The notes under the pieces are model-generated. The model was not told the DNA's origin. It did not search any database and worked only from the letters and a program-made list of their open reading frames with translations. Of a stretch of DNA of 61,429 nt, positions 32,292-54,203 are shown one piece after another (the stretch's first letter is position 1; the number at the start of each line of letters is the position of its first letter). The DNA is taken from the NCBI GenBank assembly GCA_043817235.1, contig JBDRHA010000003.1, positions 1 through 61,429 on the forward strand, given 5' to 3'. The translations under genes were made by a program, and so were the position numbers. Origin of the DNA: Candidatus Shapirobacteria bacterium (GTDB taxonomy: Bacteria; Patescibacteriota; Microgenomatia; UBA12405; BS750m-G30).

Positions 32292-33566
32292 GTGAAAAAA
32301 ATTATTGCTGACCTGCATCTCCACTCAAAATACTCCAGAGCCGTCAGCCAGGAAATGGTTTTAGAAAACATGACTGATTGGGCTAAAATAAAAGGTTTAA
32401 ATTTATTAGCCGCTCCCGATTTTACTCATCCTCTTTGGTTTAAAGAGCTGAAAAACAAACTTAAATTAAAAAGCAGAGGAGTCTATTGTTTAAAAAACGC
32501 ACCCGAGATAGGATTTATTGTCAGCGGTGAAATTTCTTCCATTTACTCCCAAAACGGCAAGACCCGGCGAATTCATAACTTAGTTTTTGCTCCTGACCTG
32601 GACAGCGCTTTTAAAATTAATAAAGCCTTGCTCCGGGCGGGAGCTAATCTTTCCTCAGATGGCCGGCCAATAATTGGCCTTTCTTCAATCCAGCTAGCAG
32701 ACTTGGTTCTTAGTGCTAATCCCGAATGCTTAATTATCCCTGCACATATTTGGACTCCCTGGTTTTCTCTTTATGGATCTCGCTCCGGTTTTGACTCACT
32801 CCAGGAGTGTTTTGGCCAATACGCAAACAATATTTTCGCCATTGAAACCGGAATAAGCAGTGACCCAAAAATGAACTGGCCAATAAAAGATCTTGAAAAC
32901 TTATCTATTTTAAGTTTTTCCGATGCCCATTCCCTGCCCAAAATCGGCCGGGAAGCAACTATTTTTAAAACCAAAAACAAAAAAGGTCTTGATTTTACTT
33001 ATTCTGATCTAGCCTTAGCAGTAAAAAGAGACAAGGCCGCCCGATGGCATATTTCTTCAACCATAGAATTTTACCCTGAAGAAGGAAGGTATCATTATGA
33101 CGGCCACCGTAAATGCAAAATAAGGCGCTCGCCTGAAGAAACCCGGAAAAAGGGCAATATTTGCCCTGTTTGCGCCAAGTCTCTAACTTTAGGAGTTGCT
33201 TATCAAGTGGCCAAAATAGCGAATTTGGGCGGATCAGCTTCTTTCCAAAAAAGACCTCCTTTTATCACTGTCATCCCTTTACTAGAAATCATTGCCGAGG
33301 TAGAGCAAGTGGGAGCAAACAGCAAGAGAGTAAAAGAAAAATATAGCCGAATGGTAAAATCATTAGGAAGCGAAATTGATGTTTTGCTTAATGTATCATT
33401 AGAAAAAATTAAGAACCTTTTTGGTTTAAGAATGAGCGAAGCAATTGAAAGAAACCGACTAGGCAAAATCAGCATTGACCCGGGATTTGATGGTCAGTTT
33501 GGGAAAGTTAATATTTGGCCAAAAAAAGGCGAGAGCCTAGCTGAAAAACAAATTGCTTTGTTTTAA
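32292..33566 (+). CDS. Endonuclease Q-like PHP-domain nuclease
   Basis: ADLHLHSKYSRA PHP start, IPAHIWTPWFSLYG, SFSDAHS, Zn-ribbon CKIRR...CPVCAKSLTLGV, PGFDGQFGKV end; length (424 aa) and order match my memory of archaeal EndoQ; GTG start. Confidence 0.6.
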   Translation: MKKIIADLHLHSKYSRAVSQEMVLENMTDWAKIKGLNLLAAPDFTHPLWFKELKNKLKLKSRGVYCLKNAPEIGFIVSGEISSIYSQNGKTRRIHNLVFAPDLDSAFKINKALLRAGANLSSDGRPIIGLSSIQLADLVLSANPECLIIPAHIWTPWFSLYGSRSGFDSLQECFGQYANNIFAIETGISSDPKMNWPIKDLENLSILSFSDAHSLPKIGREATIFKTKNKKGLDFTYSDLALAVKRDKAARWHISSTIEFYPEEGRYHYDGHRKCKIRRSPEETRKKGNICPVCAKSLTLGVAYQVAKIANLGGSASFQKRPPFITVIPLLEIIAEVEQVGANSKRVKEKYSRMVKSLGSEIDVLLNVSLEKIKNLFGLRMSEAIERNRLGKISIDPGFDGQFGKVNIWPKKGESLAEKQIALF

Positions 33567-33571
33567 ATAAG

Positions 33572-34225
33572 ATGTTTAAAAATCGCAATGATGCCGGGCA
33601 AAAACTGGCTTTAAAAATAAAAGAGGAGGAAAATTTAAATTTTTCCAACACCATTATTGTTTCCTTGCCTAGAGGGGGAACAGTTATCGGAGCCGCCTTG
33701 GCCGCCCTTTTGGACTTACCCCATTATCCTCTGGTCATCAGAAAAATTTCGCTTAAGCTTAATCCAGAATTAGCAATTGGAGCTATTGGCCAAACTCCAG
33801 ACAGCCTTTTCTTAAATAAAAAGCTAATAAATGAATTAGGAGCAGACCAAGAGGAAGTAAATACAGCAATAAAAGCAGCCCAGAAGGAAATTAAAGAAAT
33901 ACAAGAAAGAACAAAATTTACCCAGTTGCCGGATTTAAAAAATAAAGAAGTAATTATCACTGATGACGGCGCGGCTACAGGAGCGACCTTGCTAAGTGCT
34001 TTGCGCCAGGTTAAAAAATTAAGAGCAAGAAAAACAATTATCGCCCTGCCCGTTGCTCCGGCTGATACAGTTTCTTTTCTTAAAAAAGAAACTGACAGGG
34101 TAATCGTCCTTCTCCAGCCAAAAATGTTTTTTAGCGTGTCTGAGTTTTACCAGGATTTTCCCCAAGTTTCTTGGGATGAGGTGGGAAATTTGTTAAAATT
34201 ACAGGAGGGTTTACCTCGCCGATAA
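33572..34225 (+). CDS. Phosphoribosyltransferase-family protein
   Basis: PRPP-binding loop VIITDDGAATGATL. Confidence 0.7.
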   Translation: MFKNRNDAGQKLALKIKEEENLNFSNTIIVSLPRGGTVIGAALAALLDLPHYPLVIRKISLKLNPELAIGAIGQTPDSLFLNKKLINELGADQEEVNTAIKAAQKEIKEIQERTKFTQLPDLKNKEVIITDDGAATGATLLSALRQVKKLRARKTIIALPVAPADTVSFLKKETDRVIVLLQPKMFFSVSEFYQDFPQVSWDEVGNLLKLQEGLPRR

Positions 34226-34228
34226 GGC

Positions 34229-34299
34229 GGGCTTGTAGGTAAATGGCATACCGTACCCTTCGCATGGGTATATTCCGGGTTCGACTCCCGGCAAGTCCA
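34229..34299 (+). tRNA. tRNA-Ala (anticodon CGC), CCA not encoded
   Basis: Hand-folded: acceptor gggcttg/caagtcc with G3:U70, D stem ggta/tacc, anticodon stem taccc/gggta, loop ttCGCat, T arm ccggg-ttcgact-cccgg, discriminator A. Confidence 0.85.
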
Positions 34300-34363
34300 C
34301 TCTTCGACTCCCCTGACGTCTATTGCTAGTTTTTGCCAAAATTGTTACGATACTCATAGAACA

Positions 34364-35518
34364 ATGGGAACAACAAAAACTTTAAAGCTTTTAGATAACA
34401 TTCAGTTTATTTATGAACTAGCGTTAGCAAGATTAGAGCTGCAATCTTTTAATCCCGATCTAAGGGTCACCAATGACTTCAGGGAATTTGAGCTAAAAGA
34501 TGATGGGAATTTTGAGACACTCAAAAGAAGGCTCGCATATTTTAAGACGATAAACGGCAGTTACTCCGATTATTACTATCTACAAAAATACAATCAAACC
34601 AAATCAGTCAATCAATATCTAACCCACTGGATTTATCCATATAAGGGCAAATTCCACCCCCAAATGATTAGAGCCTTAATGAATATTATGAAAATCCAAA
34701 GAGGGGAAACATTATTTGATCCATTTGTTGGAAGCGGCACAGCTGTTTTGGAAGCCCAAATTTTGGGGATAAACGCAATAGGATTAGACATCAGCCCGCT
34801 TTGCGTTCTTATCTCAAAAGCAAAAACAGAATCTGTTGGTGTTCTTGATGAAATTAAAAAATATAAAGATTTTTATCTTTTCAAAAAAAGCGGAAAAGAA
34901 GCAAGCGATGAGAAAGTTAGAAATTTTTACAAAGTTGCCGAAATGATGGCCCATAGCGATCAATCAAGAAGAGGTAAAAATTTCCAGTCATCGTTTGTAA
35001 ACGATGCCCTAAAAATGATTGCATCTGTTGAGGATTACAGCAACGCCATTAAAAAGCAAAATTTAAAAATAGGGAAGACAAAAATTATACAGGGCGATAC
35101 TAGAAAAGTAAACCTGAAAGATGATTCTGTAGACGGAATTATTACATCCCCACCATACTCTATTGCTCTAAATTATGTGGCCAATGATGCCCACTCATTA
35201 GAAGCATTGGGTTATGATTTAGACAAGATAAAAGAAGACTTTATCGGAGTCCGTGGAACTGGATTAAATAAATTTGAGCTTTATGATAAAGATATGGAAA
35301 AGGCATATAGTGAAATGTTTAGGGTTTTGAAGAAAGATAAATATTGCGTGATAATCATAGGAAACGTAACATTCCAGGGCAAGGAAATAAATACAGCCCA
35401 GAATGTTATTGACTACTGCGAAAAAATAGGTTTTAAGACTATTAAAAAAATTGAGAAAATAATCTACGGACTTTATAACATTATGCAGAAAGAATATATT
35501 TTAATTTTTCAAAAATAA
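34364..35518 (+). CDS. DNA methyltransferase (N4-cytosine or N6-adenine type)
   Basis: AdoMet motif I FDPFVGSGTAVLEA and catalytic motif IV ITSPPYS about 135 aa apart; AT-rich gene next to a PD-ExK ORF. Confidence 0.7.
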   Translation: MGTTKTLKLLDNIQFIYELALARLELQSFNPDLRVTNDFREFELKDDGNFETLKRRLAYFKTINGSYSDYYYLQKYNQTKSVNQYLTHWIYPYKGKFHPQMIRALMNIMKIQRGETLFDPFVGSGTAVLEAQILGINAIGLDISPLCVLISKAKTESVGVLDEIKKYKDFYLFKKSGKEASDEKVRNFYKVAEMMAHSDQSRRGKNFQSSFVNDALKMIASVEDYSNAIKKQNLKIGKTKIIQGDTRKVNLKDDSVDGIITSPPYSIALNYVANDAHSLEALGYDLDKIKEDFIGVRGTGLNKFELYDKDMEKAYSEMFRVLKKDKYCVIIIGNVTFQGKEINTAQNVIDYCEKIGFKTIKKIEKIIYGLYNIMQKEYILIFQK

Positions 35519-35519
35519 T

Positions 35520-36155
35520 ATGGATAAAAACAACTACATAAAACAATTAGAAGAGACTATCTCGAAATTTATAGAGCCATTAAAAAATATCCCCTTTCCT
35601 GTTGCAGTAAAAGCAATATCTGGCCACGGTGTTTTATCCTTTGATAAAAATAACCCTAAAGATAAAAAATTATTAGGCCGCCTAACAGAAGCAATGGACA
35701 CAGCAATTAAAAATGCTTATGAAAAAGGAATTTCGACGGCCAGACCAAACGAAGTCGGTAATCATATAGAGCCATTCGTTAAAGATGCACTTAATAGCGT
35801 AGGATTAAAAGCCGAAATTCCTTTAACAACAAATGGCAAACACCAAAGCGCGGGCTATCCTGATATCTATATCGAGGATGCTGACCGAAGGAAGATTTAC
35901 TTGGAATGCAAAACCTATAATAAGAAGAGTATTAAATCTTCTTTTAGAGCCTTCTATTTTCAACCTTCCAAAAGCTCTAAAATTACTTGTTCTGCAAAGA
36001 AATGTATAAATCAGAAGCACTATTGGCAGAAGGCGGAATCTAATATCTTGCAAAGGGGAGGGGAGTTGAATAGAATGGGATTGTTATGGCCAAATGAAAG
36101 TTATATACACAAAGCACCTATATCAAAAAATTGCCGAAAGAAAGTTTCCCATTGA
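35520..36155 (+). CDS. Putative type II restriction endonuclease (PD-(D/E)xK), 3' end runs through a 33-bp repeat
   Basis: GYPDIYIED...IYLECKT fits PD...ExK; starts 1 nt after the methyltransferase stop; last ~36 codons cross repeat copy 1 and overlap the next gene by 62 nt. Confidence 0.5.
   Translation: MDKNNYIKQLEETISKFIEPLKNIPFPVAVKAISGHGVLSFDKNNPKDKKLLGRLTEAMDTAIKNAYEKGISTARPNEVGNHIEPFVKDALNSVGLKAEIPLTTNGKHQSAGYPDIYIEDADRRKIYLECKTYNKKSIKSSFRAFYFQPSKSSKITCSAKKCINQKHYWQKAESNILQRGGELNRMGLLWPNESYIHKAPISKNCRKKVSH
36047..36079. repeat. 33-bp direct repeat, copy 1
   Basis: cttgcaaaggggaggggagttgaatagaatggg, identical to 37174-37206. Confidence 0.95.
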
Positions 36156-36381
36156 CTATCCTAAAAAAATTTATTACCGACCCGAAAATAAATTCTATGA
36201 TTCCCAACTAGAGAATAACGTGTCGATTAAAGAAATGTTTTATAACTGTAGAAAAAGGCCAATCCAGTTATCGTGGGTATATGACAAAGATTCTCGATGT
36301 GTTAAAATGATTACAATTATGCCAGTTAGGCCTAGAAATCTGGCTAATAGAATAAAAACTGGAAGATGGGTTCCAAGATGA
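36094..36381 (+). CDS. DUF4258-like small protein (putative toxin)
   Basis: MKVIYTKHLYQKIAERKFP resembles the DUF4258 N-terminus (xxTxHaxxRmxeRxi) from memory; 95 aa. Confidence 0.5.
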   Translation: MKVIYTKHLYQKIAERKFPIDYPKKIYYRPENKFYDSQLENNVSIKEMFYNCRKRPIQLSWVYDKDSRCVKMITIMPVRPRNLANRIKTGRWVPR

Positions 36382-36698
36382 AAATAAGCAATAAATCAAT
36401 AAAAAAAGCAAAAAGATATTATGACCCCGACAGTGATGTGCTTTGGATTATCACAAAAAGCGGTGAAGTAGAGGCTGTGGAAGAATTATCACCAGGGATA
36501 AATATTGAATTTGATAAAAATGGTTTATTGCTCGGAATTGAGGTTCTTAATTACTCCAAGCAGAAACAATTTGTTGATTATTCATTTAAAGCCATAAAGG
36601 TTAAGGATAGCTCAAGAGAGTTGAGTATTTTTCCTGATAAATATCGCAGTCCCATTGTCAGGGCTAATAATCCTTCTTCCTATTTCTCTAGCCTATGA
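36378..36698 (+). CDS. DUF2283-like small protein (putative antitoxin)
   Basis: YYDPDSDVLWI...FDKNGLLLGIEVLNYSK matches the DUF2283 pattern from memory; ATGA overlap with the upstream gene. Confidence 0.5.
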   Translation: MKISNKSIKKAKRYYDPDSDVLWIITKSGEVEAVEELSPGINIEFDKNGLLLGIEVLNYSKQKQFVDYSFKAIKVKDSSRELSIFPDKYRSPIVRANNPSSYFSSL

Positions 36699-37153
36699 TT
36701 AAACACATCTGGTCAGTGATCTGCCAAAAGTCTTTAATAGATAAGGAAACTAATAATATAAGCTTAATTGAGGTTCTTGAAGAAGTTTCGGTAAATATCA
36801 CTTCTCCTGGTGAAATTAATAAAAAGATCAACATTCCTTTTAAATATGAAGTAGTAAATTATTGGATGAAAAAGGGAAGAGTGAAAGACGTAGATATCAG
36901 GATACGCCTTGTTGATCCCGATCAAAAAGTAATAAAGAGCTTCATTAACAGGCTATCCATTCCACCGGACAAGGACAGAATGAGATCTCGATTAAGAATA
37001 TTAGGTTTAGAATTAACCCGGTCAGGAAGCTATACTTTCTGGATAGAAATCAAAGAAGAAGGTAAAAAAACCTTCAAGCGAGTTGCCGAACTTCCTCTTG
37101 AAGTAAAACTAACTAAAAAAGCATTGCCGCTTGATCCACAAAAACTCAATTAA
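36695..37153 (+). CDS. Hypothetical 152-aa protein, third gene of the coupled cassette
   Basis: ATGA overlap with the upstream gene; no recognised motif. Confidence 0.6.
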   Translation: MIKHIWSVICQKSLIDKETNNISLIEVLEEVSVNITSPGEINKKINIPFKYEVVNYWMKKGRVKDVDIRIRLVDPDQKVIKSFINRLSIPPDKDRMRSRLRILGLELTRSGSYTFWIEIKEEGKKTFKRVAELPLEVKLTKKALPLDPQKLN

Positions 37154-37173
37154 CTCTTTGCTAGCTAAAAAAC

Positions 37174-37206
37174 CTTGCAAAGGGGAGGGGAGTTGAATAG
37201 AATGGG
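37174..37206. repeat. 33-bp direct repeat, copy 2
   Basis: Identical to 36047-36079; ends 3 nt before the MFS start codon; contains SD-like GGAGGGGAG. Confidence 0.95.
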
Positions 37207-37209
37207 CAT

Positions 37210-38403
37210 ATGCCAAACGGAGCAGAGCAGCAGCGGGTTTTTCATTTACCTCATTGGAAATATCCGGCTCGGCTGCCAGGACTAACCGGATTATATTTAA
37301 ACAGTGTTTTTCGCACTTTGGCTCTAGGCTTAATCGGCATTTTTATTCCGGTCTTTGTTTTTCAAATTACTTCCGGCTGGTCAGGAGTTTTAAAGTTTTA
37401 TCTTATTTCAGAGACAACAACACTTATTCTCTCTTCCCCAACAGCAATGTTAATAAAAAAGTGGGGTCCCGATTGGCTCGTTGGCTTGGGAGCTTTAACC
37501 TTAATTACAGCTTTGGGATTTCTTATCCTATCTCAAAATAATTTAGTTTTTATCTGGTGGGCGGCTCTTTTTTTAGGAATTACAGTTCCTTTCCACTGGC
37601 TGCCCTATCATCTTGCTTTTTGCCAGGAAAGTCAGCGCCACTGCCTTCACCGTCAGTTGGCAAATCGCAATATTTTAAACAAAATTTCTACGGCTGCCGC
37701 TCCTTTATTGGGCGGAATAATTGCCGCTAAACTCGGGTTCACTTCTCTTTATCTAATTGCTGGAATAGTGATCGCTCTTTCTTTAATACCCATTTTAATG
37801 GACCAGTACAACCAAAAAGGCAGAGCTCTTTCTTGGGAAAGGGTTAAAAAAACACTTAGAAAGCCCAATTTGCACTCAACCTGGCTCGGGTTTTTTGGCT
37901 GGGGAATAGAATCAGCCATTTATGCTATATTTTTACCTATTTACTTTTTTCAGTCACTAACTAATTTAGAAGAAATGGGTTCGCTTTTTACTCTTTCTTT
38001 ATTGATTTCTCTTTTAGCCATTGCCTTTATCGGCAAAAAGTCAGCGGACAATGAGGGCAAAGTATTTGGCTTAGGAATGATTGGCAGCTTTCCTTTTTGG
38101 CTAATTGTTGCTAATTTTTCCTCATTCTTAGGCTTGGCTAGTGCTAATGCTTTTTACAATATAACTTCCCAAGCAATCTGGATTCCAGTAGAGGGAGTAG
38201 TTTACCGGCAGGGCAAAAAAGAGGGTAAGTCTTATTTTGTCCTTCGCAATACTTTCTTACGCCTCGGAATTATCAGCGCTCTTTTGATGGGTGGAGTATT
38301 AAAGCTCTTTAATTTTGGCTGGAATTATGTCTTTTTTGGAGGAGTAATCGGATTACTTATCGTTACGAACCTTAGCAAAGGATTTAAAAAATGCAGGGCT
38401 TGA
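37210..38403 (+). CDS. MFS-type transporter
   Basis: 397 aa, about 12 hydrophobic segments in 6+6 layout with a central loop (NQKGRALSWERVKKTLRKPN). Confidence 0.6.
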   Translation: MPNGAEQQRVFHLPHWKYPARLPGLTGLYLNSVFRTLALGLIGIFIPVFVFQITSGWSGVLKFYLISETTTLILSSPTAMLIKKWGPDWLVGLGALTLITALGFLILSQNNLVFIWWAALFLGITVPFHWLPYHLAFCQESQRHCLHRQLANRNILNKISTAAAPLLGGIIAAKLGFTSLYLIAGIVIALSLIPILMDQYNQKGRALSWERVKKTLRKPNLHSTWLGFFGWGIESAIYAIFLPIYFFQSLTNLEEMGSLFTLSLLISLLAIAFIGKKSADNEGKVFGLGMIGSFPFWLIVANFSSFLGLASANAFYNITSQAIWIPVEGVVYRQGKKEGKSYFVLRNTFLRLGIISALLMGGVLKLFNFGWNYVFFGGVIGLLIVTNLSKGFKKCRA

Positions 38404-38702
38404 AAAGCATTAAAGAGCTTTTAAAAGATCTGGACCTTAGTAAGCGCAAACGCTATATTAGCCAGGAGTTTCAGGCTTATGGACTATTGCTGGCCAAAGA
38501 ACTTAAAGATTGGGAAAATCGGTCTCTTTATATTAAGCTAGCTAAAATTAATTCTCGGGACTTGCTGGAAAAAGCGCGTTGTTTTGTCAAAGATCAAGAC
38601 GCCAAAATAATTAAAAGTCGGGCACGCCTTTTTATGTGGAAGCTAGGGGAATTAAAGAAGTCAGGTGGTAAGCAACGACAGAAGCAGCCACCAAAACATT
38701 AA
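38391..38702 (+). CDS. Hypothetical basic protein (103 aa)
   Basis: ORF overlapping the MFS stop by 13 nt; 3' end overlaps convergent trmH-like gene by 71 nt. Confidence 0.45.
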   Translation: MQGLKSIKELLKDLDLSKRKRYISQEFQAYGLLLAKELKDWENRSLYIKLAKINSRDLLEKARCFVKDQDAKIIKSRARLFMWKLGELKKSGGKQRQKQPPKH

Positions 38703-39168
38703 GCGACCTATTAACTCCATAAAGAGGAATATTAATTATTTCGTCTGCTTGGTTAAGAATTTTTGTCGAAACTCCCTCGGTTTCATGCCCCACTGCCAAA
38801 GCGACAGGAAAGCGCGGTTTAATATCCAAATAACTTTTGCTATTTTTCGTCTGCTCAAGAGCAATAATCTGCCAGTTGTCTTTTTTTAATTTTTTTATTA
38901 CCGGCACGGCAGAAGAGTGGTGCTCCCAGGGAACCCAGCGCCATAAACCCACGGAGGCCCGATGGATTTTCGGGTTCGGAGGGAGAACAACTTGTCCGGT
39001 TAAATAAATTTTTTGCGCACCCAGCGCATCAGCTAATCTAAAAAACGAACCAATGTTATAAGTGTCGGTAACATTATCCAAAATAAAAACCAGAGGATTA
39101 GCGTAAATTTCTTCCGGTTTTTTTGTCCCCAAAGAAACCCGAAGTTGTTTGGCATTAAGCTTGGTCAT
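38632..39168 (-). CDS. SpoU/TrmH-family RNA 2'-O-methyltransferase
   Basis: NIGSFFRLADALG, LAVGHETEGVS, IPLYGVNRSLNVLVAASVVAYHL; ATG 39168 in ATGA overlap with the upstream stop. Confidence 0.85.
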   Translation of the reverse strand: MTKLNAKQLRVSLGTKKPEEIYANPLVFILDNVTDTYNIGSFFRLADALGAQKIYLTGQVVLPPNPKIHRASVGLWRWVPWEHHSSAVPVIKKLKKDNWQIIALEQTKNSKSYLDIKPRFPVALAVGHETEGVSTKILNQADEIINIPLYGVNRSLNVLVAASVVAYHLTSLIPLAST

Positions 39169-50577: not shown

Positions 50578-53223
50578 ATGAAAAAAGAAAAAACTATTTT
50601 ACAAGAGAACGAAAAAAATACGAGAAAAGGCAGAATCAGAACTGTTGGAATTGTGCCCGAGATGGAAAAGTCCTATTTAGACTACGCGATGAGCGTTATT
50701 GTGCAACGGGCTTTGCCCGAGGTGCGCGACGGGCTTAAGCCAGTTCACCGCCGGATCTTATATGCCATGCACCAGATGGGCTTAACTTATGGCTCCAGGC
50801 ACTCCAAGTCCGCCAAAATTGTCGGAGAGGTTTTGGGAAAATATCACCCTCATGGAGATATGGCCGTCTACGAATCTTTGGTCAGAATGGCCCAAAATTT
50901 TTCTTTGCGCTACCCATTAATTGATGGCCAAGGAAATTTTGGCTCCATTGATAATGATCCCCAAGCAGCTATGCGCTACACCGAAGCCCGAATGGCTAAA
51001 ATCAGCGCCGAAATGCTATCAGATATTAAAAAAGAAACTGTAGAATTCACTCCTAATTTTGATAATAGCTTAGACGAACCACTGGTGCTGCCTACTAAGT
51101 TGCCTAACCTCCTTTTAAACGGAGGCGATGGCATTGCTGTAGGCATGGCCACCAAAATTCCACCTCATAATTTGGAAGAAGTAGTCAGTGCCTGCATTGC
51201 CGTCTTAGAAGCAGGAAAACTGGAAAAACAGGAAGCTGAAGAAGAAAGCACAGAATTCCAAAAAATTGATCTCGTTCCCCAGGACGAAAAAGAAATAATC
51301 TTTAAAGAGGTTACTAAGCTTGAAAAAGAAAGGCTTGAATTTGAAACAGAGAGAACTTCTCAAGAATTACTAAAATATATTAAGGGCCCGGATTTTCCTA
51401 CCGGCGGCCAAATCTTTGACAAAGAGGCAATTTCCGAGATTTACACTACTGGCCGAGGCAAAGTCATTATTCGGGGAAAGGCAGAAATAGAAGAAGCTAA
51501 AGGAGGAAAATTTCAAATTATTATTTCGGAAGTTCCTTACCAAGTCAACAAAGCCCAAATGGTCGCTAAAATCGCTGATTTAGCTAAGGAAAAAAAGATT
51601 GTGGGAATTGCCGACCTTCGTGATGAATCTGACCAGAGAGGGATTCGGGTTGTGGTTGAGCTAAGAAAAACCTCCATGCCCAGATCTGTTTTAAACAAAC
51701 TCTATAAACTGACTCCTTTGCAAACCAGCTATCCGGCTAATGTTGTCGCTTTAGTTGACGGAATTCCTCAAACCTTAAATTTGCGCCAAATTTTGCTTCT
51801 CTTTATTCGCCACCGCCACCAAGTAATTCGGCGGCGAACTATTTTTGACCTTAAAGAAGCCAAGCTGCGCTCCCATATCCTGGAAGGATTAAAAATTGCT
51901 CTAGATAATCTAGATGCGGTCATTGAAACTATTAAAAAATCTAAAGATTCGGAAGCAGCCAAGATTAATTTGATGGAAAAGTTTAAATTAACTTCACTCC
52001 AGGCAACAGCTATTCTAGACATGCAGCTTCGCCGTTTAGCGGCCTTGGAAAGGCAGAAAATTGAAGACGAATATCAAGAAATTAAAAAATTTATGGACCT
52101 GCTTATCGCCATTCTAACCAAGCCTGAAAAAATGCTCGGGGTAATCAAAGACGAATTGCAACAGATCAAGGAAAAATATAAAGACAAAAGACGAACTAAA
52201 GTATTCTCCCAAAAAATAGGGAATTTTTCTGAAGAGGATCTAATACCAGACAAAAAAACAATTATAACCATTACTAAAACCGGCTATGTTAAGAGACTGC
52301 CGCCTTCCACTTTCCGCAGCCAGAGAAGGGGAGGGAAAGGAATAATGGGCATGACTAAAAAAGAAGAAGATGAAATTGAGCACTTTCTTTTTGCTCAAAC
52401 CCATGATGAAATTTTCTTTTTTACGGACAAGGGCAGGGTTTTCAAGCTCAGAGTTTGGGATATTCCCGAAGGGTCACGCCAGTCTAAAGGGCAGGCAATT
52501 ATTAACTTGATTAACATTGAGCAAAAGGAAAAAGTTCAAGCTGTTTTAACCGCAAAAAAGGACACCAAGGGTTACATTGCCATTGTCACCAAAAACGGAC
52601 AGATTAAAAAAACTGACTTAAAAAAGTTTGACAATATCCGAGTTTCGGGAATTATTGCTATCAGCTTAAAAAGCAATGACCAGGTGGTGGATGTCAAGCT
52701 TACGCAAGGAAATGATCAAATATTTATCGTCACTCAAAGCGGGAAATGCATTCGTTTTCCCGAAAGAGACGTTCGGCCCATGGGCCGGGATGTTCAGGGC
52801 GTAAAGGGAATTTCCTTAAAGGATCGCGACAAAGTAATTACCATGGACATTATCCCTGAAAAACTTCCTGAGCCGGAAGACAAGCGAAAAAAAGTTTACC
52901 GACACCTGTTGGTGGTGATGGAAAACGGAATCGGAAAAAGAACAGATGTTTATGATTATCCCTTGCAAAAGAGGGGCGGGGTGGGAGTAAAAGTAGCAAA
53001 CATTACGGCAAAAACCGGCCAGGTTTCCTGCGCCAAAGTAATTTCGGAAAAAGATGCCCAAGCAGTTTTAACTTCACGGCAAGCACAAGTTATTAAGCTT
53101 CCGATTAAAAATATTCCGGTTCTTTCTCGGGCTACCCAAGGAGTTATTTTAATGAGGCTAAAAAAAGAAAAAGGCAAAACAACCGATAAGCTGGCAGACA
53201 TCACTTGTTTAAAGAAAGCCTAA
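50578..53223 (+). CDS. gyrA: DNA gyrase subunit A
   Basis: [30 protein letters not shown], catalytic AMRYTE, GyrA-box QRRGGKG, beta-pinwheel repeats. Confidence 0.97.
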
Positions 53224-54203
53224 GATTTTTTATTCCCGCTGTGATATTTGTCGTGAATTTCTTTTAGCCTTTTGTCTGTTACGTGAGTATAAATCTGGGT
53301 AGTGACAATGCTTTGGTGGCCCAAAAGTTCTTGCACTGATCTTAGGTCCGCCCCGGACGAAAGCAGATCAGTGGCAAAACTATGACGCAAAACATGAGGT
53401 GTCACTCTTATTACTAATCCCGCCTTTCTTTGATACTTCTTAACCATTCTTTGAATGGAGCGCACTGATAATCGCAAAACTTCACCCTTGGTGCTCGGGT
53501 CGCTTTTTTTGCCTGAATAGCGAATAAATAAAGGCTGGTAGTGGTCATTACGAGCAACCAAATAGCGATCCAGCCATTTTTTGGCCCTGTGAGAAATAAA
53601 TATTACCCTTTGGCGCCCACCTTTTCCAATCACGCCTACCTCGCGAGAATCTAAGTTAATTTGATCACGGTTAAGACCAACCAGCTCGGAAACCCGCAGT
53701 CCTGAGGAAAAAAGAAGCTCTAAAACAGCTTTGTCTCTTAAGCCAATGATCGTAGAAATCGTAGGCTGGCCAAGCAGTCTTTCTGCCTCTTTAGCACTCA
53801 AAAACTTAACCCCGCTTTTTTCTCCCCGAGGAAGCTCAATTTTATCGGGCGAAAGGGCCTCGTAGTCATTTTTAATGAGCCACCGCAAAAAAGACCTTAA
53901 GGCAACAATATAATATCCTTGTGTTTTCTTTTTTAAATAAGTGCCCTTCTTTGTTTTTTTATTACTAAGCAGTTTCCTAAACTGGCGAATATTTGGCCCA
54001 TTAAGGTCCAATAGGGTAGGGGACTTATTCTTTTTAGAAACGAAATCTAAAAAACTAATTAAATACTGGTGGTAATTGCGAATCGTCAGGGGAGAGCGGT
54101 TTTTTTCAATTTCTAAATATTCTAAAAAATTAAAAATTAATTTAGACAAATCGTTATTCTCGGTCATCTTCAATAGCATAATCTTATTATTTTCTTTTGT
54201 CAA
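53220..54203 (-). CDS. Tyrosine recombinase, XerC/XerD family
   Basis: RLSVRS...[39 protein letters not shown] (R-H-R-Y catalytic set); ORF opens with TTG; ATGs at 54179 and 54167 are alternative starts. Confidence 0.9.

Follow-up and report, generated by a model that had tools for sequence, protein, structure and literature searches.

Within a 61,429-nucleotide stretch of a Candidatus Shapirobacteria contig (the window, meaning the whole of the DNA analyzed here), three small genes are bracketed by two identical 33-bp sequences, raising the questions of what this repeated sequence is and how it came to flank the genes. The two copies of the 33-mer, CTTGCAAAGGGGAGGGGAGTTGAATAGAATGGG, are on the same strand and match without a mismatch (33/33), as the preliminary description had reported, and their positions are listed with those of the surrounding features in Table 1. 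The window contains no further match at three or fewer mismatches, with 0 expected from shuffled sequences, and the next-best match has 11 mismatches. The edges of the repeat were described as sharp and proved to be so, as both the left flanks and the right flanks of the two copies align no better than shuffled sequence. No sign of an extension of the repeat was found in the left flanks, and a repeat longer than 33 bp was rejected because the likeness that follows the copies, TATG(G)CCAAA, is equalled by 12% of shuffles. A candidate third, diverged copy 5' of the M gene (TTGCTAG...TTGCCAAA...ATAGAA) was also rejected (local alignment p ~0.2), with other upstream regions in the window outscoring it. 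The 33-mer is not a frequent promoter motif, a possibility that had been raised at the outset: it occurs nowhere else in the window, it is single-locus in three sequencing runs, and its 24-nt core gave 0 matches among the genome, metagenome, and viral contigs of three public collections.

Table 1. Features of the island and of its two anchors, with coordinates in the window
Feature	Position	Strand	Remarks
tRNA-Ala(CGC)	34229..34300	+	Conserved left anchor; ARAGORN; Rfam 59.4 bits
Degenerate direct copy of tRNA-Ala 3' end	34300..34323	+	TTCGACTCCC exact, 15/24 overall
DNA methyltransferase N6_N4_Mtase (M gene)	34364..35518	+	MjaV-type type II R-M; Pfam PF01555 5.8e-16
Restriction endonuclease pseudogene (R)	35520..36043	+	PF27324 MjaV family, family match clear; 136-nt internal deletion
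Copy 1 of 33-mer, predicted promoter	36047-36079	+	Starts 3 nt past native R stop; predicted to drive the three-gene cassette
Copy 1 hexamers	-35 TTGCAA 36048-36053; -10 TAGAAT 36071-36076	+	17-nt spacer
Three-codon mini-ORF, ATG GCC AAA TGA	36086..36097	+	9 nt past -10 box; stop overlaps ORF95 ATG (ATGA)
ORF95	36094..36381	+	First cassette gene; putative toxin partner of DUF2283; conserved family without Pfam assignment
ORF110	36366..36698	+	DUF2283 protein, putative antitoxin; Pfam PF10049 1.1e-13
ORF152	36695..37153	+	Third cassette gene, DUF6941 family; start overlaps ORF110 stop (ATGA)
Copy 2 of 33-mer, predicted promoter	37174-37206	+	Ends 3 nt short of MFS ATG at 37210
Copy 2 hexamers	-35 37175-37180; -10 37198-37203	+	
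MFS transporter	37210..38403	+	Host gene, conserved right anchor; Pfam MFS_1

A pair of perfect repeats might be created during assembly by a graph loop at a shared 33-mer, in which case the DNA would hold one true copy together with a separate circle or a strain variant. The junction leading from copy 2 into the MFS gene is indeed seen in the window alone. Among public-run contigs at ~5x depth no empty-site or circle junction turned up, and those of the independent groundwater run have a gap at 37194-37294. The k-mer assembly (k = 31) of the same run nevertheless contains copy 1 with both of its flanks (35998-36407), continuous from R through the 33-mer into ORF95, as well as a second contig (36381-37193) in which the end of the cassette runs 20 nt into copy 2 and so enters a copy with a distinct left flank. 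Because both left junctions are present in independent contigs, at least two copies of the 33-mer exist in the DNA. A repeat of 33 bp is, moreover, shorter than the read length and the final k of common assemblers, and a downstream MFS gene agrees with the synteny of the relatives, so that we regard an assembly artefact as exceedingly improbable.

The extent of the inserted DNA was delimited by comparison with four syntenic loci (L001-L004), which share the gene order Na_Ca_ex, MJ0043_C, PRTase, and tRNA-Ala, followed by MFS, a small ORF, SpoU, VSR_TRX, and Fer4. The 2.9 kb that separate tRNA-Ala from the MFS gene in the window are absent from all of them, and since tRNA-Ala directly abuts the MFS gene in these relatives, the whole of this segment (34301-37209) is an insertion. 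The preliminary description was thus right that the region is inserted relative to syntenic relatives, but it had confined the insertion to 1.1 kb, whereas the comparison shows that the M gene, the R gene, and the cassette are all additional. The GC content of this island is 0.344 compared to 0.398 for the window, which is among the lowest 2.4% of windows of the same size. The MFS orthologues are 48-54% identical, have the same synteny, and share a conserved N-terminus (MPNG/MSNG), confirming the start codon from which the 3-nt distance to copy 2 had been counted. MFS-based locus scans of metagenome and genome contigs returned no relatives, and at 48-54% MFS identity the tRNA-MFS spacers of the relatives found are unalignable. 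At the other end of the island, the degenerate copy of the tRNA-Ala 3' end is the sole match at nine or fewer mismatches within 33000-39000 and is missing behind the tRNA in L001, L003, and L004; it may be the scar of an earlier integration at the tRNA, and it marks the left edge of the island. A tRNA 3'-end copy at the right edge, which would have qualified as attR, was sought and rejected, as the single copy is the one directly following the tRNA.

The left part of the island holds the two genes of an MjaV-type R-M system. The M gene encodes 384 amino acids, a length equal to that of its homologues, and appears intact; M genes of 384 amino acids also adjoin the R homologues in L007-L009. Homologues of the R protein have ~220 amino acids, and the homology of the window's protein to them breaks after the residues KIT. 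Alignment of the DNA with L005, L007, and L008 places a frameshifting deletion of 136 nt at 35995/35996, beyond which the last native codons are kept (36014-36040, EALLAEGGI*) together with the stop codon (36041-36043), 3 nt 5' of copy 1. The deletion allele is also present in two Logan contigs (35713-36025 and 35998-36407). The open reading frame that starts with R (35520-36155) does pass through copy 1 and overlap ORF95 by 62 nt, as had been noted, and the overlap had been taken as a sign that the repeat or the insert replaced the native C-terminus. The alignment gives another origin for this tail, which is read out of frame after the internal deletion while the native stop survives. The restriction gene at this locus is therefore a deletion pseudogene and not a fusion, and the pair is not an intact MjaV-type R-M system, as R is frameshifted and M alone looks intact. 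Look-up of the window's R and MFS proteins gave no exact record match. The 33-mer was also considered as a part of the R-M module, which was rejected because homology with the R-M loci L005-L011 ends at the R stop codon; the R-M homologues sit in unrelated genomic contexts.

The right part of the island, between the copies, is a cassette of three genes that recurs as the same set (ORF95, DUF2283, DUF6941) in unrelated contexts in L012 and L013, bearing out the proposal of a coherent mobile unit. Based on these comparisons, the 2.9-kb islet consists of two independently mobile modules, the MjaV-type M-R pair and the three-gene cassette. Pfam scans of all island genes detected no integrase, transposase, or recombinase in 34301-37209, and neither terminal inverted repeats nor hairpins were found at the ends of the cassette.

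With the limits of the modules defined, the 33-mer itself was examined, and both copies read as a sigma-70-type promoter (TTGCAA-17 nt-TAGAAT) with 9/12 consensus matches. This anatomy fits one of two options in the preliminary description, namely that a promoter module was duplicated. In copy 2, 6 nt separate the end of the -10 box from the conserved ATG of the MFS gene, which predicts transcription from the A of this ATG and a leaderless mRNA. Promoters of leaderless mRNAs, in which the -10 box lies ~7 nt 5' of the start codon, have been described in Actinobacteria, Deinococcus, and archaea, and the window resembles them in having such an arrangement in front of a quarter of its genes: 16 of 64 genes have a TAnn[AT]T box whose last base is 4-10 nt 5' of the start, compared to a background of 9.3% (p = 1.9e-4). 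Distances from the -10 box to the start of local genes range from 5 to 10 nt, TAGAAT also serves three other genes as -10 box, and Shine-Dalgarno (SD) motifs are at background level (5/64). This bacterium appears to rely on leaderless mRNAs. In L001, L003, and L004 the MFS gene starts 3-38 nt past tRNA-Ala, again without an SD motif, suggesting that its leaderless translation is ancestral. The G-rich tract GGAGGGGAG had been read as SD-like, but the genome is not enriched in SD motifs and ~25-28 nt separate the tract from each of the two start codons; it is the spacer of the promoter, not a ribosome-binding site. The use of copy 1 is less clear-cut because, unlike in typical leaderless promoters, its -10 box is 17 nt from the ATG of ORF95; the mini-ORF that intervenes could admit ribosomes in a leaderless manner and be coupled to ORF95. 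The MFS gene and the junction of ORF95 with ORF110 are covered by low-depth, transcript-derived contigs of an RNA run, which stop short of the 5' ends, and we infer the promoter activity of the 33-mer and the leaderless starts from the sequence.

We consider it more probable than not that the cassette entered between the promoter and the start codon of the MFS gene and that its entry duplicated the 33-bp promoter, that is, an insertion with long target duplication. The most likely order of events would begin with a promoter that served the MFS gene, as suggested by the canonical distance of 6 nt between the -10 box of copy 2 and the MFS ATG. A promoterless cassette would then have been inserted between this promoter and the ATG in an event that duplicated the 33-bp target, possibly through the joining of taken-up DNA, with homology at one end and an illegitimate join at the other, or else through Campbell-type recombination at the shared 33-mer. 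Copy 1 would consequently drive the cassette, and copy 2 would maintain expression of the MFS gene. Such an insertion would cost the host gene nothing, as what it duplicates is precisely one promoter. Clean loss of the cassette could follow if the two copies underwent RecA-type recombination.

Two copies would also result if the promoter had been recruited the other way round, with the 33-mer as the cassette's own promoter that was later copied in front of the MFS gene by local duplication or gene conversion. The toxin-antitoxin (TA)-like cassettes of L013, L015, and L017 bear promoter-like boxes of their own near the first start codon, and the 3-nt gap between tRNA-Ala and the MFS gene in L001 leaves no space for a dedicated MFS promoter, such that an inserted island would create the need for one by cutting the MFS gene off from tRNA-driven transcription. 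That no terminator separates the cassette from the MFS gene is likewise consistent with this order. Moving exactly 33 bp over 1.1 kb downstream without flanking homology has no simple known mechanism, however, and it is copy 2 whose spacing is canonical for this genome. The 38-nt tRNA-MFS spacer of L003 contains -10-like boxes, making it plausible that the MFS gene ancestrally had a promoter of roughly such a length. On balance, recruitment from the cassette appears unlikely, and target duplication at an MFS promoter is the preferred reading.

Insertion with long target duplication has been documented for R-M units (Nobusato et al. 2000, Gene 259:99; Furuta, Abe & Kobayashi 2010, NAR 38:2428, PMC2853133), where inserts without mobility genes are bordered by direct target repeats of >30 bp that often span the starts or stops of genes (PMC2853133). 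[quoted passage not shown] The repeats abut the stop and the start of the neighboring genes, so these stay functional. Two differences are apparent. The published cases concern R-M units, Furuta et al. 2010 (PMC2853133) having screened for inserts that carry R and M, whereas here a TA-like cassette lies between the repeats with the R-M pair just outside, left of copy 1; and the sequence duplicated here amounts to exactly one promoter. The repeat pair would then be an insertion footprint of a fairly ordinary kind. If this reading is true, the locus is a clean case, outside the classic R-M ones, of the entry of a gene module with long target duplication, and it shows the assembly of small defence or addiction islets beside tRNA genes of an uncultivated bacterium from groundwater. 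DNA transposons and MITEs fit less well, given the lack of terminal inverted repeats and the 33-bp length of the duplication.

The same repeats could instead be attL and attR, with the 33-mer as the identity core and an integrase-less cassette mobilized in trans as a CIME or IMEX. A sharp block of identity of a few tens of bp around an insert resembles att sites, and the cassette lies in a hot spot next to a tRNA gene whose 3' end is present as a degenerate copy. A tyrosine recombinase gene is found 16 kb away (53220-54203), and the homologous cassette in L012 lies between the genes for tRNA-Ile and a tyrosine recombinase. The recombinase in the window, the nearest to the island, is however Xer-type (SAM_1 plus catalytic architecture) and located among housekeeping genes, and neither the island nor its borders encode one. 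The 33-mer has no dyad symmetry, inverted repeats, or binding-arm structure, the insert is without inverted repeats, no 33-mer was found beyond this locus in the window, runs, and collections searched, and the promoter elements fully account for the repeat. Direct matches flanking the cassettes of L012, L015, and L017 do not exceed 9 nt, and although these homologues are distant, the absence of flanking repeats argues against a dedicated recombination site, the other option that had been proposed for the 33-mer. We accordingly view an att origin as rather improbable. The island does resemble tRNA-adjacent islets and CIMEs that grow by accretion: it lies directly 3' of a tRNA together with the degenerate 3'-end copy, is low in GC, lacks an integrase of its own, and combines two modules for defence or addiction that are independently mobile. 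It differs from them in that the repeats inside it and on its right are a promoter and not tRNA-derived att sites, with no third copy at the left end. Integron cassettes (attC) and Xer-dependent dif modules are similar in being small, promoter-proximal, and often composed of TA genes between repeated sites. The 33-mer differs from those sites in forming non-palindromic, direct, identical repeats without an integron integrase or attI, and homologous cassettes elsewhere are without repeats.

A more elaborate version of the preferred insertion would give the 33-mer a double role, as promoter and as exchange site in a promoter-targeting cassette system. A trans-acting recombinase or the competence machinery would then carry integrase-less TA-type cassettes to positions between a promoter and a leaderless start. 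As the promoter would be duplicated at each entry, the cassette and the host gene would both stay expressed, and a system of this type, if real, would be a general route to defence or addiction islets in an organism with leaderless genes. We consider its existence quite improbable.

The proteins encoded by the cassette resemble those of type II toxin-antitoxin and tripartite TAC operons in the organization of their genes, which are small and overlapping with ATGA couplings, include a DUF2283 partner, and have a third gene joined to the operon. ORF95 had been described as DUF4258-like, but it has no Pfam DUF4258 match; searches of Pfam, NCBIfam, and PDB sequences gave no match, a spurious Cas6_C being the only Pfam hit at E = 10. 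Homologues of 93 and 95 amino acids, for which there is no Pfam family on record, hold the same position in L012 and L013, and a single-sequence structure model of ORF95 was unusable (pLDDT 47). Unlike the toxins of type II systems, ORF95 is outside the toxin families recognized by Pfam and is a putative toxin by position. For ORF110, the DUF2283 assignment was confirmed (51.5 bits, cut-off 23), and its true start is probably the ATG at 36378, which overlaps the ORF95 stop (ATGA) and agrees with homologues beginning MSKIKK and MKSIKT. ORF152 has 1986 representative homologues, and 25 of the 62 members of its family match DUF6941. Its model is an all-beta sandwich (AF2 pLDDT 95) with a predicted Ig-like fold of the PDE6delta/RhoGDI type (TM about 0.46-0.5), unlike the SecB-like chaperone or regulator of TAC operons. 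No match to ORF152 was obtained in viral contigs, nor to ORF95 or ORF152 in plasmids, and the literature search found no papers on DUF6941 or on DUF2283 with DUF4258. An ORF152-type gene is also third in L012, L013, L015, and L017, and DUF6941 proteins come third behind three different toxin-antitoxin-like pairs. While the practical lessons of the locus are modest, DUF6941 as a recurrent third gene behind unrelated TA-like pairs is the more promising lead.

The 33-mer CTTGCAAAGGGGAGGGGAGTTGAATAGAATGGG occurs twice in the window with 0 mismatches between the copies, as the preliminary description, made by a model from the sequence alone, had reported (33/33). The copies lie 1127 nt apart start to start, and the intervening 1094 nt hold a cassette of three genes (ORF95, ORF110, and ORF152). 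Searching the window with up to 3 mismatches returned no further match, with 0 expected in shuffles, and the next-best match in the 61 kb has 11 mismatches. The repeat boundaries proved as sharp as described, since local alignment of the flanks (40 nt on each side) revealed no similarity between the copies above shuffled controls. A rightward extension into the start of the adjacent transporter gene (MFS) via TATG(G)CCAAA, which follows both copies, was rejected as not significant (reached by 12% of shuffles), as was a third, diverged copy upstream of the methyltransferase gene (M). A check of the 33-mer as a frequent motif found no contigs bearing it with different flanks among the 2.9, 5.6, and 3.1 million contigs of three runs, and it was absent from three public collections. 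The repeat is real and non-random, and the 33-mer is not a multicopy motif. A public groundwater metagenome run (X1, about 5x depth), assembled independently at k = 31, yielded one contig (35998-36407) that spans the end of the restriction gene (R), copy 1, and ORF95, and another (36381-37193) that runs from the cassette into the first 20 nt of copy 2; therefore, two copies exist in the DNA. Because 37194-37294 is a coverage gap in X1, the junction between copy 2 and MFS rests on the window assembly and synteny. We regard an assembly loop artefact as most improbable.

The 33-mer can be parsed without remainder into 1 base, a -35 box (TTGCAA), a 17-nt spacer (AGGGGAGGGGAGTTGAA), a -10 box (TAGAAT), and GGG, from which we infer a sigma-70-type promoter with predicted activity and transcription starts. 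As both copies share this TTGCAA-17-TAGAAT arrangement, the earlier suggestion of a duplicated promoter module is supported. The -10 box of copy 2 has its last base at 37203, and the MFS gene begins with an ATG at 37210, such that the predicted start, ~7 nt past the box, would be the A of the ATG and the mRNA would be leaderless. Such spacing is characteristic of this genome. Among the 64 long ORFs in the window, 16 carry a TAnn[AT]T hexamer whose end falls 4-10 nt ahead of the start codon, against a background of 9.3% at random positions (binomial p = 1.9e-4). A number of the 16 are also preceded by a good -35 box, for example TTGACA-18-TAAGAT-9-ATG and TTGACT-18-TAATAT-7-GTG, and TAGAAT is found three more times among the -10-box genes. 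SD-like motifs precede the start codons of 5/64 long ORFs in the window, which equals background, and much of the initiation in this genome appears to be leaderless or SD-independent. Because the promoter geometry recurs and SD motifs are at background, the G-rich tract of the 33-mer, about 25-28 nt from either start codon, is better read as predicted promoter spacer than as the SD-like element originally proposed. The -10 box of copy 1, with its last base at 36076, is 17 nt from the ORF95 ATG (36094). A three-codon ORF, ATG GCC AAA TGA (MAK*), starts 9 nt past this box and its stop overlaps the ORF95 ATG (ATGA); it might serve ORF95 as a coupled, leaderless entry ORF. Sparse contigs from the single RNA run include portions of M, R, the ORF95/ORF110 junction (36243-36458), and MFS, none reaching the 5' ends.

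Contigs of syntenic relatives (L001/L002, L003, and L004) are collinear with the window on both sides, sharing on the left the order Fic, ATP-dependent DNA ligase, Na_Ca_ex, MJ0043_C, phosphoribosyltransferase, and tRNA-Ala(CGC), and on the right MFS, a small ORF, SpoU(-), VSR_TRX(-), ferredoxin(-), and TrpRS(-). The MFS orthologues, found only at 48-54% identity, conserve the N-terminus (MPNG/MSNG) and lack an SD. The tRNA-Ala is separated from the MFS start codon by 3 nt in L001, 38 nt in L003, and about 11 nt in L004; between the same tRNA and the same ATG, the window has 2909 nt (34301-37209), with a GC content of 0.344 versus 0.398 for the window (lowest 2.4% of same-size windows). Gain of this 2.9 kb in the window's lineage is the most parsimonious explanation. 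The tRNA-Ala 3' end is followed at once by a degenerate direct copy of itself, which the three syntenic relatives lack and which an earlier integrase-mediated event at this tRNA may have left as a scar. In L001 (6926-7003) and L004 (6966-7052), with the MFS start codon only 3-11 nt past the tRNA 3' end, the MFS mRNA may be made by co-transcription with tRNA-Ala followed by tRNA 3' processing.

The left part of this island carries an MjaV-type restriction-modification (R-M) pair. In protein alignments of R, whose family members are about 220 aa, homology stops after ...SSKIT, and DNA alignment with three homologous loci shows that the window cleanly lacks 136 nt between 35995 and 35996. The original C-terminal codons and stop codon survive unaltered past this point (GAAGCACTATTGGCAGAAGGCGGAATCTAA, EALLAEGGI*, stop at 36041-36043), though out of frame; the tail of the R ORF, which continues through copy 1 and then 62 nt into ORF95, is therefore a frameshift read-through. 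The 62-nt overlap noted in the preliminary description is present, but the repeat did not rewrite the 3' end of R as claimed: the native stop is retained and copy 1 starts 3 nt past it. The deletion allele was also found in independent contigs. The 33-mer lies outside the R-M module, as similarity to R-M loci elsewhere extends no further than the stop codon of R. With R frameshifted and the adjacent M apparently intact, the system has decayed to an orphan methylase. In L005/L006 (3767-5660), a homologous pair separates a pilin-like gene from a T2SSE ATPase within a type IV pilus operon, with intergenic gaps of only 3 and 10 nt and no flanking repeats; another follows a CCA-adding enzyme (L007), a third is in a Thermodesulfovibrionales MAG (L008), and a small HTH controller gene is sometimes upstream. 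The pair, tightly inserted in very different contexts, is one of two mobile modules in the island, the other being the three-gene cassette.

Coordinates of features in the window and in homologous loci
Feature	Location	Strand	Remarks
tRNA-Ala(CGC)	34229-34300		left anchor of the locus, common to relatives
Degenerate direct copy of tRNA-Ala 3' end	34300-34323		TTCGACTCCC exact (10 nt), 15/24 overall
M gene	34364-35518		PF01555; full length relative to homologues
R ORF	35520-36155		PF27324 (MjaV) family
33-mer, copy 1	36047-36079	+	
MAK* ORF	36086-36097		
33-mer, copy 2	37174-37206	+	
Xer-type tyrosine recombinase	53220-54203	-	Phage_int_SAM_1 + Phage_integrase; next to gyrA
DUF6941-family gene (about 150 aa), window	36695-37153		
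DUF6941-family gene, L012	886-1335		
DUF6941-family gene, L013	4571-5029		
DUF6941-family gene, L015	1738-2217		
DUF6941-family gene, L016	262-741		
DUF6941-family gene, L017	1358-1822		

No integrase or transposase is present among the island genes, the insert has no terminal inverted repeats, and the 33-mer has no dyad symmetry; the site-specific cassette insertion first proposed is accordingly not supported. The only recombinase among the 38 ORFs scanned against Pfam (64 long ORFs were predicted in the window) is the Xer-type enzyme, 16 kb from the island among housekeeping genes, and it is distinctly unlikely that the 33-mer is an att core for a recombinase acting in trans. 'Insertion with long target duplication' has been described for R-M units (Nobusato et al. 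(2000); Furuta et al. (2010), PMC2853133). According to Furuta et al. [quoted passage not shown] The window resembles these cases in having a direct repeat of >30 bp, unique in the genome, around a module without mobility genes, with the repeats abutting the stop and start of neighbouring genes, and insertion with target duplication is favoured on these grounds. The promoter would originally have served MFS, since the geometry of copy 2 is canonical for this genome and the L003 tRNA-MFS spacer is of about promoter length, with -10-like boxes. The cassette would then have inserted between promoter and MFS ATG, duplicating the promoter, such that copy 1 would now feed the cassette and copy 2 MFS. 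We lean, by a little, toward this history as a whole. That the promoter came with the cassette and was later copied to the MFS gene, despite the canonical setting of copy 2 and the L003 spacer, is a minority possibility. The 33/33 identity includes the unconstrained spacer, which argues that the event was recent. Recombination between the copies, plausible with 33 bp of identity, would delete the cassette and restore R-promoter-MFS.

The cassette genes are predicted to be translationally coupled through ATGA overlaps between ORF95 and ORF110 (36378-36381, assuming that translation of ORF110 begins at the second ATG, in line with its homologues) and between ORF110 and ORF152 (36695-36698). ORF110 is a DUF2283 protein, as anticipated; the DUF4258-like label for the first gene did not hold, as no family assignment was found for ORF95, whose clear homologues occupy the equivalent position in L012 and L013. 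The ORF152 family has 1986 representatives, with 25 of 62 members matching DUF6941. The structural model of ORF152 (pLDDT 95) predicts an Ig-like beta sandwich, and its closest matches among solved structures, PDE6delta, UNC119, and RhoGDI (TM about 0.46-0.5), do not assign a function. The same gene order (93-95 aa, DUF2283, DUF6941) occurs in L012 (214-2208), directly after tRNA-Ile(TAT), of whose end no repeat was found, and before a convergent tyrosine recombinase gene, a setting that may be that of a mini integrative element, and in L013, adjoining an HD-domain gene. DUF6941 homologues (46-47% identity) form the overlapping third gene behind other pairs, namely Gp49/HigB-like and HTH_XRE in L015/L016 and DUF6883 and DUF4926 in L017. 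That three distinct TA-like pairs are followed by such a gene suggests a tripartite module not described before, and a literature search returned no paper mentioning DUF6941. When homologous cassettes were checked for flanking direct repeats, those in L012, L015, and L017 showed none beyond 7-9 nt, a result that speaks against the 33-mer being a dedicated recombination site, although these homologues are distant. While the repeat is a new example of a known insertion footprint and modest in interest, more interesting by-products are the DUF6941 gene that recurs in third place after unrelated TA-like pairs and the mode of expression in this genome, which appears to be leaderless and SD-free. 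Elsewhere, a GC-rich 51-nt sequence is present twice at the contig start (1-140), the copies being 98% identical and 89 nt apart, in a stretch unlike the AT-rich rest of the window.
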